IMG/VR virus record: IMGVR_UViG_2617270961_000002 | Source of the DNA: a virus | Taxonomy: Monodnaviria > Loebvirae > Hofneiviricota > Faserviricetes > Tubulavirales | DNA length: 8,932 bases | Direction: 5' to 3' (one strand) | In this document: positions 14 through 8,932 of the stretch, piece after piece | Position numbering within the stretch: the first letter of the stretch is position 1 | How the letters are laid out: each line of letters begins with the position of its first letter | Notes under the pieces: generated by a model | The model's database searches: none | Seen by the model: the letters and a program-made list of their open reading frames with translations, nothing else | Told to the model about the DNA's origin: nothing | Made by a program: the position numbers and the translations under genes

Positions 14-67
14 GACGTTGTGGTGGGTAAACTGAGATGCCGCGTCCTGATAATCCCCGGTCGGCAC

Positions 68-2062: not shown

Positions 2063-3633
<1,571 letters not shown>

Positions 3634-3635
3634 TG

Positions 3636-5030
3636 TTACCCCCTGTCAACAAAAAGAACACGACGAACAATAAAGTAACAACGTAAAGTCGTTAATGCAT
3701 AAAGAGCATACTCCAGTAAAGGTCTGATAATGTCATCATAAGCTGAAGCAAAATCAGATGTGTCAATTGTAAAATACAGCCCATTTATCCCCGGCAATGG
3801 AAATTCAATCTGAACTGGCTGAGCACCAGAACGACGCAGTTCACCAGTTAAAAGTAATTTATCAAAATTAATATAAAGCCACTCATCAGGAAGAAGACTG
3901 AAAAGCCTGTCAGCAAATGAAGACATATCATCCTGTTCAGGCGTTACAGAATGAATTAATTCATTTAACTGTGAATCATAAGAACTAACCGCACTGGTAA
4001 TATCATCCTGAGAAACAGAAAAAGTATTATTTAAATCATTCACTGAACCCCATATTGTTTTTAACCAGCCCAAAATACCATCAAGCCAGCCATTGTCATC
4101 GCCGGATGAGCCACCGGAGCCTGAACCTGAACTACCGCTACCGGATGAACCACCGGAGCCAGAACCTGAACCACCACTGCCGGATGAGCCGCCGGAACCC
4201 GAGCCGGAGCCACCGCTACCGGATGAACCACCGGAGCCAGAACCTGAACCACCACTGCCGGATGAGCCGCCAGAACCCGAGCCGGAGCCACCGCTACCGG
4301 ATGAACCACCGGAGCCAGAACCTGAACCACCACTGCCGGATGAACCGCCAGAGCCTGTCGTATTATCGCAATTGTCGTCGTCACAACCAGAGCCACTCCC
4401 TGTATTGCCGTCAGGATTTTTATTGGCGGGAGCCACGCCAACAGAACGCATACTTTGAGCGATACAATTCCCGTCGTCATCACACTCGTTAAAATCAATC
4501 AAATAACGACAGCCATTAATTTCCAGGGACTGAGATTCCTGCCCGTTACCCGTATCAACCCAGACAACATCACCAAGAGAATATGAAAAGTCCTTAATTA
4601 CCGGACGGGAAAGACAATTTTCTTCGGTAACCGGCTTATTATATTCAGGTGTCAAATCCCCCTCACCACCCTGAAAAGCAAGGGTGCAGGCTGTCCACTT
4701 TTGCTTGTCTGAATCCCAGACTTTATATGCTGACCACCGGGCACGGACAAAAGACCCGACAGTCGAAGGTGCATTAACAGGCGTGGAAAGTGGCACACCA
4801 CAATAATGAATTATTCCGGAACATGCGTCATAATTGCCCGAACCACAGAAAAGATGACCGGCCGCCCTGGCTAATTTAATCGACGTCCCCGCGTCCGAAT
4901 AATCTGTCCTGCAGGATGAATGGCCTGCACACTGAACAAGTGCATCCGGATTTTCTTTCTCTTCAGCGAAAGAAAACGAGGAAAAGAACAAAAACAGAAG
5001 CGGAATAATAAAGTGAATCAAAAAAAACAC
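3636..5030 (-). CDS. Adsorption / minor coat protein, pIII-like, with Gly/Ser-rich linker
   Basis: 464 aa; hydrophobic N-terminal leader; Cys-rich N-terminal region; long (GGSSGSGGSGSGS)n linker; hydrophobic C-terminus. The track start at 5030 is GTG overlapping the AGGAG Shine-Dalgarno sequence, so the true start may be a few codons downstream (for example TTG at 5021). Confidence 0.8.
   Translation of the reverse strand: MFFLIHFIIPLLFLFFSSFSFAEEKENPDALVQCAGHSSCRTDYSDAGTSIKLARAAGHLFCGSGNYDACSGIIHYCGVPLSTPVNAPSTVGSFVRARWSAYKVWDSDKQKWTACTLAFQGGEGDLTPEYNKPVTEENCLSRPVIKDFSYSLGDVVWVDTGNGQESQSLEINGCRYLIDFNECDDDGNCIAQSMRSVGVAPANKNPDGNTGSGSGCDDDNCDNTTGSGGSSGSGGSGSGSGGSSGSGGSGSGSGGSSGSGGSGSGSGGSSGSGGSGSGSGGSSGSGGSGSGSGGSSGSGSSGSGSGGSSGDDNGWLDGILGWLKTIWGSVNDLNNTFSVSQDDITSAVSSYDSQLNELIHSVTPEQDDMSSFADRLFSLLPDEWLYINFDKLLLTGELRRSGAQPVQIEFPLPGINGLYFTIDTSDFASAYDDIIRPLLEYALYALTTLRCYFIVRRVLFVDRG
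4102..4358. repeat. Intragenic 39-bp tandem repeats (about 6.6 copies, alternating two sub-variants as a 78-bp higher-order unit) encoding the pIII Gly/Ser linker
   Basis: CCGGATGA(A/G)CC(A/G)CCGGA... recurs at 4102, 4141, 4180, 4219, 4258, 4297 and 4336; it creates the periodic PLPDEPPEPEPEP and Arg/His-rich artefact ORFs in other frames. Confidence 0.9.
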
Positions 5031-6112: not shown

Positions 6113-8360
<2,248 letters not shown>

Positions 8361-8494
8361 GTTTGCACCGCAATATATTTACCGCATGCGTGCATCATAA
8401 TCACATTTAACACGTATTGTAAATACGCATGCGCTATGCGGGTGTAAAAAAAATGGAATAATCACCTTCTATTGAAAGGACATAGAGGTAAATT
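8361..8494. promoter_or_regulatory. Divergent intergenic control region (likely promoters/operators for the replication operon and the divergent regulator; possibly the plus-strand origin)
   Basis: 134-bp non-coding gap between divergent starts; two copies of the self-complementary octamer CGCATGCG (8383-8390 and 8426-8433); inverted repeat CGTATT-gta-AATACG (8413-8427); A-run and AT-rich tract upstream of the plus-strand gene. Confidence 0.5.
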
Positions 8495-8710
8495 TTGATG
8501 AAAAAAGAAACAAAGCGCGGAGACACAACCGTAAGGATTAACGAAAACAGAAAACTGGAGCTAAAACGAAGAGTGCTGGAAATCGGTAATAAAACAGGTG
8601 AGCTACTAAAACCATCAGAGATAGTAAACCACTTAATAGACAACTACTTAGATGATGCGGTGAAAGATCTAATAAGCAAAGAAGAACTTAAGAAAAAAAA
8701 GGCAATGTGA
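8495..8710 (+). CDS. Small DNA-binding regulator, ribbon-helix-helix-like; candidate phage repressor
   Basis: 71 aa; GAGG Shine-Dalgarno sequence 9 nt upstream; predicted beta-strand (TTVRINEN) followed by two helices (RKLELKRRVLEIG / SEIVNHLIDNYLDD) in an RHH-like arrangement; basic C-terminus; divergent from the replication genes, as rstR is in CTXphi. Confidence 0.5.
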   Translation: MMKKETKRGDTTVRINENRKLELKRRVLEIGNKTGELLKPSEIVNHLIDNYLDDAVKDLISKEELKKKKAM

Positions 8711-8773
8711 TCCCTTTCCCAACGTCAAAAAAACAGGCCAAGAAAGATCAAAGGAACAGTTAAACGAGGCAAT

Positions 8774-8929
8774 ATGCAGATAACCAGTGACTTAATCCTT
8801 GACCTGCTGATAAAGCATTTTGTTGTGGGCAGCATCACAGGCATGACAATATTCAGCCTGATAACGCTTGTCCTACCGTTGGTGATGACCATACACAACA
8901 AACTAAGTAAGGACACTGAAATCCTTTAA
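8774..8929 (+). CDS. Hypothetical small membrane protein (51 aa)
   Basis: ATG at 8774 with GAGG 4 nt upstream; hydrophobic core FVVGSITGMTIFSLITLVLPLVMTI flanked by charged residues; same strand and same reading frame as the upstream regulator gene. Below the ORF-track length cutoff; an overlapping minus-strand ORF (8725-8916) is an equally weak alternative. Confidence 0.3.
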   Translation: MQITSDLILDLLIKHFVVGSITGMTIFSLITLVLPLVMTIHNKLSKDTEIL

Positions 8930-8932
8930 GGT

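Follow-up and report, generated by a model that had tools for sequence, protein, structure and literature searches.

RstR alleles of Vibrio are allele-specific repressors of rstAB, a function which was demonstrated experimentally (PMC11509585). In the filamentous prophages CUS-1/YpfPhi and UPphi901, which reside at dif and co-opt XerCD, a few hypothetical open reading frames (ORFs) in reverse orientation are located beside the dif/attP end (PMC7307601). The locus considered here is part of a filamentous (inovirus) prophage of E. coli of the dif-integrating type with a CTXphi-like attP, which makes up the window, i.e., the whole stretch of 8,932 nt that was analyzed. Two small genes of this prophage, a regulator gene and a 51-aa ORF, are the counterparts of those accessory ORFs, with UPphi901, CUS-1 and YpfPhi being likened by description. 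As in CTXphi and VAI, the element hosting the regulator is an XerCD/dif-integrating inovirus. Nevertheless, it differs from both in its E. coli host and in a backbone featuring a 700-aa Phage_GPA-type Rep and its own secretin. Its pIII repeats are Gly/Ser-rich (GSGGSSGSGG...) versus the GGGES repeat reported for UPphi901 (PMC7307601).

The gene order comprises a secretin, a Zot/pI-like, a pIII-like and a coat gene, followed by the Phage_GPA-type rep on the minus strand (6113-8215), the 700-aa product of which matches PF05840 with an E-value of 8e-49. Together with an 81-aa ORF (8115-8360, minus strand), rep faces the regulator gene starting at 8495 on the plus strand. Relatives of this prophage are integrated beside hipBA, which we take to adjoin dif in E. 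coli, and their prophage end consists of a double inverted XerCD-like site (AGTGCGCACAATGACGTTATGT...ACATAACGCGTGTCACATTATGCGCAC, two inverted XerCD-binding-like sites) located directly after the 51-aa ORF. In the window itself, a single arm of this double site is kept at positions 1-13, namely the XerC-side arm of a second attP/dif-like site on the reverse strand (CATTATGCGCACT, which deviates from the XerC arm GGTGCGCATAA at one position). In the circular phage, this prophage end sits just beyond the 51-aa ORF. Likewise, two relatives (L036 and L205) feature ...GTGTCACATTATGCGCACTGACGTTGT... after the attP hairpin, running on into the homologue of window positions 14-35. Judged from sequence, the arrangement corresponds to CTXphi-type XerCD-dependent integration, with two inverted sites that should be able to form a forked hairpin and with integration at dif. 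A megablast search of the whole window against deposited phages yielded no match, and neither did an Rfam search of the whole window.

The regulator gene (8495-8710, plus strand) encodes a protein of 71 aa if translated from TTG 8495 and of 70 aa if translated from ATG 8498, and it ends at TGA 8708-8710. Its start is ambiguous; database homologues mostly begin with MKKETKR and comprise 70 aa. The gene features approximately 70% nucleotide identity over 172 nt to the annotated rstR of the Vibrio pre-CTX, CTXphi and VAI1/2 phages. On the protein level, phrog_2503 matches the regulator end to end (E 1.5e-27), and it shares 67% amino-acid identity (E 1.8e-17) with P0036, a 64-aa cluster that hardly differs from the annotated RstR of VAI2. 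Homologues of 60 to 94 aa were obtained in 32 clusters in one search and in 41 in another. By these sequence matches, the regulator is a member of the RstR repressor family. It resembles RstR of CTXphi and pre-CTXphi and the RstR-like protein of the VAI phages of Vibrio anguillarum in homology, in size and in its place divergent from the replication gene. The layout of a regulator divergent from rep with a short control region, equivalent to ig-2, in between is also found in VAI2 and pre-CTX, and the position of the regulator next to a candidate operator region agrees with that of RstR-family immunity repressors, as far as can be read from the sequence. For Vibrio alleles of RstR, repression of the rep promoter in an allele-specific manner and immunity to superinfection were shown (PMC11509585); for the regulator of the window, the same function would be expected by homology and position.

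The candidate operator region (8380-8436, unstranded) separates the regulator from the divergently oriented rep operon and was found by a repeat search. Here, the palindromic octamer CGCATGCG occurs twice (8383-8390 and 8426-8433) within 12-nt inverted arms. Promoter-like hexamers are located near this pair at 8352-8379 (plus strand) and 8423-8394 (minus strand), their number being not above that in shuffled sequences. The region is addressed as a putative operator by its position only.

The first-pass annotation had labelled the regulator a ribbon-helix-helix (RHH) protein. The AlphaFold2 monomer (pLDDT 92) features an extended N-terminus (TTVRIN) and helices at residues 17-34 and 40-70, and this predicted strand-helix-helix topology fits RHH proteins of the Arc/MetJ/CopG/ParG type. 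Weak structural and profile neighbours likewise include the RHH proteins PrpA, ParD and Reg576, a TCP domain and ParG. However, the predicted second helix (40-70) is unusually long compared to RHH proteins, and no statistically significant profile or structure match backs the label: the Pfam search of the regulator gave no match, the PDB profile search nothing significant (ParG, E 0.31), and the Foldseek search of the model against the PDB a best E-value of 0.85.

The regulator gene and the 51-aa ORF share one reading frame. Translated in a single frame, positions 8495-8931 read LMKKETKRGD...KKKKAM*SLSQRQKNRPRKIKGTVKRGN-MQITSDLILD...DTEIL*, i.e., the single TGA at 8708-8710 is followed by 21 sense codons (8711-8773) and by the 51-aa ORF (8774-8929). 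This layout, including the one hydrophobic segment, had been described in the first-pass annotation, and its coordinates proved exact on retranslation. Still, such an arrangement is no commoner than chance predicts. Shuffled versions of the 63-nt linker were free of in-frame stops in 31% of cases, and the same applied to 47% of all stretches of this length in the window; multiplied by 1/3, the odds of two ORFs sharing a frame, this stop-free share results in a chance expectation of approximately 0.10-0.16. A second in-frame layout exists among the relatives, in which a 62-aa gene is followed by the 51-aa ORF across a single TAA (L037, L038, and L207). The possibility of a coincidence, which the annotation had also raised, is backed by this chance expectation and by relatives without frame conservation. 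Accordingly, the linker (8711-8773, plus strand) is open in the shared frame of the window allele by chance only.

The alternative would be a programmed read-through of the UGA, giving a membrane-anchored repressor of approximately 143 aa composed of an RHH-like domain, a basic 21-aa linker and a transmembrane helix; a read-through fusion of this size had likewise been proposed in the annotation. Among the stop codons of E. coli, UGA is the leakiest, and the shared frame is open not only in the window allele but also in identical or near-identical IMG/VR copies (L015, L016, L045, L054, L043, and L060). Nevertheless, the stop stands in the context UGA-U, which is an efficient terminator context in E. 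coli, the 51-aa ORF possesses a Shine-Dalgarno sequence and ATG of its own, and the layout is expected by chance at the frequency given above. Moreover, the relatives break the frame in several ways. In L001, a CAA>TAA change creates an in-frame stop in the linker. The intergenic gap comprises 41 nt in L002, L157, and L206 versus 42 nt in L037, L038, and L207, and this 1-nt indel makes the frame relation differ between those relatives. Two stops separate the regulator gene from the 51-aa ORF in L036 and L205, some relatives carry an extra gene between regulator and small ORF, prophages of the L003 type feature about 300 nt with stops followed by a 57-aa homologue, and the small ORF is absent in L204. 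Nonsense codons in the linker, the 1-nt indel and the loss of the ORF are changes that the annotation itself had named as evidence against a fusion.

Likewise, no fused regulator and small-ORF protein was detected in the 32 and 41 regulator clusters or in 8 small-ORF clusters, with the longest regulator homologue comprising 94 aa. The comparison of synonymous and nonsynonymous changes in the linker, put forward in the annotation as a check, revealed pN/pS values of 0.96, 1.18 and 2.72 in the shared frame for three deep allele pairs and thus no purifying selection. The comparative sequence data therefore already contradict the read-through fusion, which we regard as extremely improbable. As the frame is open in the window allele, L015, L016, L043, and L060, trace read-through of the UGA may remain there.

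The 51-aa ORF (8774-8929, plus strand) is the last gene before attP and is predicted to encode a single-pass membrane protein. The motif SDLILDLLIKH is located in its N-terminal part, a hydrophobic segment (FVVGSITGMTIFSLITLVL, mean Kyte-Doolittle value of 2.13 over 19 residues) spans approximately residues 16-39, and its C-terminus is polar. A Shine-Dalgarno-like GAGG (8766-8769, plus strand), as read from the sequence, is located 4 nt upstream of the ATG at 8774, and GAGGGG precedes the ATG of the 57-aa homologue in L003. All seven DNA alleles comprise exactly 51 codons, dN/dS ranges from 0.4 to 0.66 between diverged allele pairs, and the database clusters of the small ORF include proteins of 51 aa as well as homologues of 57-64 aa. 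In L003-type prophages, the 57-aa protein occupies the same position and has invariant residues in common with the 51-aa ORF; the SxxILDLLxKH motif, the transmembrane segment and a positively charged C-terminus are kept in it despite its divergence. These sequence features suggest that the 51-aa ORF is a genuine gene.

It was also considered that this stretch is not coding in the sense frame, being conserved as DNA or RNA, e.g., as an attP-proximal element, or that an antisense ORF (8725-8916) is the real gene. The dN/dS values indicate moderate constraint only, the 51-aa ORF abuts attP, the hairpin of which follows directly 3' in relatives, and the antisense ORF is open in all alleles. Because wobble positions are common to the two overlapping ORFs, the strands cannot be told from each other by dN/dS alone. 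Still, start, stop and length are exactly kept in the sense frame, whereas the end of the antisense ORF differs between alleles; the Shine-Dalgarno sequence precedes the sense ATG, and the diverged 57-aa homologue retains the sense-frame features. The antisense ORF as the real gene was rejected on these three grounds. Furthermore, it is the sense ORF that is annotated by gene callers and in RefSeq, there is no promoter-like site for the antisense ORF within the window, the attP hairpin lies on that side in relatives, and, as mentioned above, the window is without an Rfam match. A non-coding or antisense origin is therefore considered improbable.

No toxin, defence or exclusion family was matched by the 51-aa protein in Pfam, PHROGs (best E 0.057), PADLOC and NCBIfam. 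Since the ORF travels with the phage core and attP and not with the repressor, its product might, with low confidence, be an accessory membrane factor expressed from the prophage, e.g., for the exclusion of related phages or for help in assembly.

This independence from the repressor becomes apparent from the mosaic structure of the relatives. In a form 96-100% identical, the 51-aa ORF sits behind four different regulator genes, i.e., the RstR-like, the WP_001409658-type, the 62-aa MPTKH-type and the NYLNDAKQDM-type regulator. Conversely, the RstR-like regulator of the window is followed by the 57-aa variant in prophages of the L003 type, and L204 carries a WP_001409658-type regulator with the small ORF absent. 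As it follows four different regulators, the 51-aa ORF is not the cognate partner of the one in the window. The first-pass annotation had suggested a pair of a regulator and a small membrane protein, of which two real-looking and probably co-transcribed genes stand, whereas the cognate relationship does not. Co-transcription is probable because a scan found no terminator between the two genes.

A matched pair, either a small membrane toxin and its antitoxin or repressor, or a module dedicated to repression plus exclusion, would agree with two adjacent, terminator-free genes on the same strand. In addition, being small and hydrophobic, the protein bears a loose resemblance to type I toxins, with the 57-aa homologue reaching an E-value of 0.039 against the Fst family, which is far below the cut-off. 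Nevertheless, the exchange of regulators and of the small ORF speaks against such a module, PADLOC, NCBIfam, Pfam and PHROGs gave no toxin, antitoxin or defence matches, and the regulator has the place and homology of a phage immunity repressor. The matched pair is consequently held to be very improbable.

The identities of the genes, their mosaic context, the lack of frame conservation and the lack of selection in the shared frame point to two separate genes. We consider it very likely that their frame sharing is accidental and that no read-through fusion exists at a level on which selection acts. The first gene would encode an RstR-family repressor of approximately 70 aa, divergent from the replication operon and beside the paired CGCATGCG, and would end at its TGA. 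The second would encode a single-pass protein of the inner membrane, translated independently from its own GAGG/ATG (8766-8776) and probably located on the same transcript as the regulator. In relatives, this transcript would be terminated by the GC-rich hairpin of attP, located immediately past the end of the window. The shared frame would then be the coincidence of one particular mosaic junction.

A different frame of the linker is better conserved. The regulator gene ends with the codons AAG AAA AAA AAG GCA ATG TGA and thereby contains the heptamer A_AAA_AAG (8695-8701, plus strand), a possible -1 slippery site in phase with the regulator frame and within an A8 run (8693-8700). The -1 frame of the linker (8707-8763, plus strand) starts with a GTG overlapping the stop codon as GTGA, continues with IPFPTSKKQAKKDQRNS and is closed by TAA 8761-8763. 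Its pN/pS is 0.41-0.57 versus 0.96-2.7 in the frame of the regulator and the 51-aa ORF, and VIPFP...KD is present in all three deep allele groups. As the -1 frame looks constrained, the linker would be more than a plain intergenic spacer. This frame could represent the tail of a frameshift product, a mini-ORF under translational coupling or a vestige.

Hidden coding in this frame could be realized in two ways. Either the ribosome slips by -1 at A_AAA_AAG (or RNA polymerase on the A8 run), giving a minor isoform ending in ...KKKKGNVIPFPTSKKQAKKDQRNS in place of ...KKKKAM, or an 18-codon mini-ORF starting from GTG 8707 and overlapping the TGA is expressed by termination-reinitiation coupling. 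In favour of such coding, the heptamer has the proper phase, and the A run is directly preceded by a TAA of the -1 frame (8689-8691). Differences among the IPFP codons are almost confined to third positions, and 30 of the 59 pairwise differences fall on third positions of the -1 frame. The tail goes with an ...EELKKK(K/R)AM end that is common to two regulators with different DNA-binding parts. The A run itself varies in length, with A7 in the L002 type, A8 in the window and A9 in Salmonella. The Salmonella alleles combine their A9 run with a 24-codon -1 frame that ends in SVIQFPH and is devoid of a start codon, and the database includes variants in which a changed A run brings the tail into frame (P0029, P0030, P0076, and P0075). 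A terminal Lys run with its A8-A9 tract and the conserved tail in the -1 frame set the alleles of E. coli and Salmonella apart from rstR of Vibrio, which lacks them. The locus resembles -1 frameshifting of the dnaX and IS3-IS911 type in the identical A_AAA_AAG, the correct phase and a short downstream -1 ORF.

Nevertheless, unlike in dnaX and the IS3-IS911 type, no upstream Shine-Dalgarno-like sequence, downstream hairpin or pseudoknot was detected as a stimulator near the heptamer, and the conservation of the -1 ORF, as read from the sequences, derives from approximately three lineages. A_AAA_AAG is among the most shift-prone heptamers in E. coli if stimulators are present and weak if they are not, with heptamers lacking stimulators reaching only 2-10 times the background of 0.055% (PMC4066793). 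The RNAalifold consensus of six alleles had -1.3 kcal/mol without covariation, and single-sequence folding of the linker was weaker than that of shuffles (z = +1.55); an RNA structure acting as frameshift stimulator or as terminator was rejected on these values, with no terminator being found.

The conservation argument is restricted as well, because the three pairwise pN/pS comparisons are not independent, all five differences within the allele group of the window are non-synonymous in the -1 frame, and L038 reads IPFL. Since Lys-rich C-termini are common across the regulator family, A runs are a general family feature, and distant homologues (L004-L013, L031-L035, and those of Vibrio) are without such a tail. 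Each A9 variant is represented by one contig and could stem from a homopolymer error. In-frame proteins of regulator and tail were not accepted as decisive evidence that frameshifting occurs: although P0075 is widespread, it is part of a decayed remnant, in which a 5'-truncated regulator is fused to a secretin fragment. The similar-looking tail of P0071 belongs to an IncFII-plasmid protein.

A metagenome scan for the IPFP-coding motif AATGTGATYCCTTTYCC was unspecific, with at least 120 stretches and L157 as the only true relative among the matches listed. The 19-mer GAAGAACTTAAGAAAAAAA retrieved 38 stretches from viral contigs, 13 of them being relatives (L042, L043, L045-L047, L054, L057, L059, L060, L065, L072, L073, and L076), and contributed one new allele (L043/L060). 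Overall, hidden -1-frame coding by slippage or a coupled mini-ORF is rather unlikely. It is with the same reserve that a recoding site, i.e., A_AAA_AAG, slippage on A8-A9 or a GTGA-coupled mini-ORF, is proposed as something that RstR-like repressors of dif-integrating inoviruses from E. coli and Salmonella may carry, the chances being low.

If this were true, a second product with a basic tail containing VI(P/Q)FP would arise in place of the KKKKAM/KKKKAI end, the latter of which we take to resemble the ClpX tag RRKKAI of MuA. Such a tail could alter the stability of the repressor or its binding to partners and so tune the prophage switch. Recoding at the 3' end of the repressor gene is a cheaply testable lead, suggestive only. 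The shared frame itself is of little import, and the read-through fusion need not be considered further. A useful by-product is the evidence that the 51/57-aa membrane protein constitutes a fixed element beside attP irrespective of the repressor present, and by this fixed place it appears to be a reasonable candidate for an accessory function expressed in the lysogen. With this, the immunity/attP end of an E. coli filamentous prophage family that is poorly represented in phage databases is now cleanly described.

Translated in one frame from 8495 to 8931, the window gives the regulator (LMKKETKRGD...KKKKAM), a single TGA (8708-8710), 21 sense codons (SLSQRQKNRPRKIKGTVKRGN) and then MQITSDLILDLLIKHFVVGSITGMTIFSLITLVLPLVMTIHNKLSKDTEIL up to the next stop, just as the first-pass annotation had described. 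No in-frame stop occurs in 31% of shuffled versions of the 63-nt linker (8711-8773) and in 47% of all 63-nt stretches of the window. Given these rates and the one-in-three chance of a common frame, such an arrangement is expected in about 10-16% of cases. The shared frame across one TGA is thus not improbable and is coincidental, a reading that had already been offered and that was borne out by both the chance expectation and the comparative data.

The competing proposal of stop-codon readthrough into a regulator-membrane protein fusion was refuted by these comparisons. Frame-disrupting linker changes and loss of the downstream ORF, which had been named as evidence against a fusion, were both encountered among related loci. 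The shared linker frame of L001, which is 92-95% identical across the region, is interrupted by CAA>TAA, and L036 and L205 carry two in-frame stops. The spacer of L002, L157 and L206 measures 41 nt, which places the ORF in a different frame, versus 42 nt in L037, L038 and L207, and L204 is devoid of any small ORF. In prophages of the L003 type, which form the majority among complete E. coli genomes, the spacing amounts to about 300 nt, includes several stops and is followed by a 57-aa homologue. For the regulator, homologues formed 32 clusters when 5.8 billion proteins were searched and 41 when HMMER was run exhaustively on 1.84 billion representatives; every one is 60-94 aa long. Small-protein homologues formed 8 clusters of 51-64 aa, and no fused protein was found in either set. 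Likewise, the suggested comparison of synonymous and nonsynonymous changes in the linker told against a fusion, with shared-frame pN/pS values of 0.96, 1.18 and 2.72 in three deep allele groups. Readthrough as a selected feature is therefore ruled out by the frames and stops of the relatives, the absence of fusions and the linker pN/pS; trace UGA leakage may still occur in the one allele carried by the window.

The region forms the immunity/accessory end of an inovirus with CTXphi-style, XerCD-dependent integration. The minus strand encodes the secretin (68-1276), a Zot/pI-like protein (2063-3274), pVI-like and pIII-like proteins, a coat-like protein, small ORFs, an ORF of ssDNA-binding-protein size and a 700-aa Phage_GPA-type replication protein (PF05840, E 8e-49), while the regulator and the 51-aa ORF (8774-8929) are encoded on the plus strand and point away from the replication operon. 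An 81-aa ORF (8115-8360, minus strand) directly upstream of the replication gene overlaps its start and matches phrog_3104 (E 4.7e-5), a family without assigned function; in relatives, a hypothetical protein of 60-82 aa is annotated at this position. In the gene of the pIII-like protein, a 39/78-nt repeat array (4101-4355) specifies a Gly/Ser-rich linker (GSGGSSGSGG...), the portion that is usually hypervariable in receptor-binding proteins of inoviruses. Between the secretin and Zot/pI-like genes, a 339-bp tandem repeat (1315-2049, 2.2 copies, 95% match) generates duplicated spurious ORFs on both strands. Unlike the tandem repeats of dif prophages discussed for the UPphi phages (PMC7307601), it is internal to a single genome.

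Related E. coli loci adjoin hipBA, beside which E. coli dif is located, and terminate in ...TTTAAGGT TCAGTGCGCACAATGACGTTATGT-(GC-rich hairpin)-ACATAACGCGTGTCACATTATGCGCACC, a pair of inverted XerCD-like sites as in the attP of CTXphi. Positions 1-13 of the window represent the last arm of this attP/dif-like site (CATTATGCGCACT), and 0 nt separate the end of the window from the first arm. The window lacks the forked-hairpin attP of the relatives (about 86-90 nt; L001 3711-3806, L036 319-420), part of which is a terminator-like GGCCGCTGCG...CGCAGCGGCC-TTTT stem. Since the right end of the window immediately precedes this element, whose last arm opens the left end, the 51-aa ORF is the last gene before attP. 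The RstR-family repressor and small attP-adjacent ORF recall UPphi901 and YpfPhi, for which reverse-oriented hypothetical ORFs were reported beside dif (PMC7307601). Near-identical copies of the window exist in IMG/VR (L015, L016, L045, L054), and megablast of the whole window yielded no match among 50,697 deposited phage records.

We conclude that the 51-aa ORF is a real small membrane-protein gene. Its product has one strongly hydrophobic stretch (19-residue Kyte-Doolittle mean 2.13), the ORF comprises exactly 51 codons in all seven DNA alleles, dN/dS amounts to 0.4-0.66 for diverged allele pairs, and GAGG precedes the ATG by 4 nt. The 57-aa protein of L003-type prophages occupies the same place just before attP, behind a GAGGGG Shine-Dalgarno sequence, and shares M1, S5, I8-L9-D10, L12, K14-H15, G23, P35 and I40 as well as the single transmembrane segment and basic C-terminus. 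An antisense ORF (8725-8916) is open in all alleles too, and as its wobble positions coincide with those of the sense ORF, substitution patterns do not tell the strands apart. It was rejected as the real gene because its end is not conserved among alleles, a scan of the window revealed no promoter-like site for it and the attP hairpin lies on its upstream side in relatives. Searches of Pfam, PHROGs, PADLOC and NCBIfam gave no family match for the 51-aa protein. Since no terminator was found between the repressor gene and the ORF, we favour an inferred role as a lysogen-expressed accessory membrane factor.

The proposed pairing of regulator and small membrane protein holds as adjacency, not as cognate partnership. 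The 51-aa ORF follows four unrelated regulator genes (RstR-like, WP_001409658-type, 62-aa MPTKH-type and NYLNDAKQDM-type) and thus travels with the phage core and attP rather than with the repressor, which speaks against a cognate pairing of the two, toxin-antitoxin-like or other. Different regulator cassettes lead into a conserved junction of about 45 nt (AACATCGTAGTTACCTATCGATACGAAGATTGCTAAGAAGCAAT; L036 1-165, L037 1440-1500, L038 60-145 and 630-672), and in L038 three regulator-like genes stack in tandem ahead of the ORF. The arrangement looks like cassette-style exchange of immunity genes.

Judged by homology, the regulator (8495/8498-8710) is an RstR-family repressor: it shows about 70% nucleotide identity to rstR as annotated in Vibrio phages (pre-CTX, CTXphi and VAI), matches phrog_2503 over the full length and shares 67% identity with protein cluster P0036, itself almost the same as the annotated RstR of VAI2. 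Allele-specific repression of rstAB by RstR alleles was demonstrated experimentally (PMC11509585). Two copies of the palindromic octamer CGCATGCG lie 43 nt apart (8383-8390 and 8426-8433) in the control region between the divergent rep and regulator genes, and are candidate half-sites of the repressor's operator. The earlier RHH label is plausible but unproven, as the AlphaFold model (pLDDT 92, 53-sequence alignment) predicts an RHH-like topology of an extended N-terminus and two helices, with no significant Pfam, PDB-profile or Foldseek match. The C-terminus reads KKKKAM in E. coli (window 8690-8710) and KKKKAI in Salmonella (L027-L030, about 1690-1713), presumably resembling the ClpX-recognition end RRKKAI of MuA; should this likeness be borne out, the repressor might be recognised as a ClpXP substrate.

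The final codons of the regulator, AAG AAA AAA AAG GCA ATG TGA, contain an in-phase A_AAA_AAG (8695-8701) within an A8 run that starts at 8693. In the -1 frame, a TAA immediately 5' of the run is followed by GNVIPFPTSKKQAKKDQRNS and a TAA at 8761-8763, and a GTG at 8707 overlaps the TGA of the regulator. Across alleles, this peptide shows stronger conservation than either of the other linker frames: it reads VIPFPTSKKQAKKDQRNS, VIPFPASNRRADKDQTEV... and VIPFPAFSRLPAKDRKDTV in the three deep groups, with IPFP codons that differ almost exclusively at third positions, and linker pN/pS in this frame is 0.41-0.57. Still, this conservation rests on only about three lineages, changes within groups are all non-synonymous in the -1 frame, and L038 reads IPFL. 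The tail accompanies two regulators that have the ...EELKKK(K/R)AM end in common and differ in their DNA-binding parts, and Salmonella alleles combine an A9 run with a 24-codon -1 frame ending SVIQFPH, whereas more distant homologues lack such a tail. Database variants with a changed A run (P0029, P0030, P0076, P0075) read the tail in frame, yet P0075 is located in a decayed remnant. This remnant (L079-L083 2321-2740, on at least 28 E. coli contigs) carries a secretin fragment fused to a 5'-truncated regulator (P0075, 79 aa), its VIPFP tail being in frame through a 2-nt deletion in the A run. Besides, no stimulatory RNA structure was found, and without stimulators frameshift heptamers reach no more than 2-10 times the background of 0.055% (PMC4066793). 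Expression from the -1 frame, in whatever form, is considered rather unlikely.

The flagged shared frame is a coincidence at the immunity/accessory end of an already known inovirus type. The remaining interest lies in the conserved attP-proximal membrane ORF and in the -1-frame lead.
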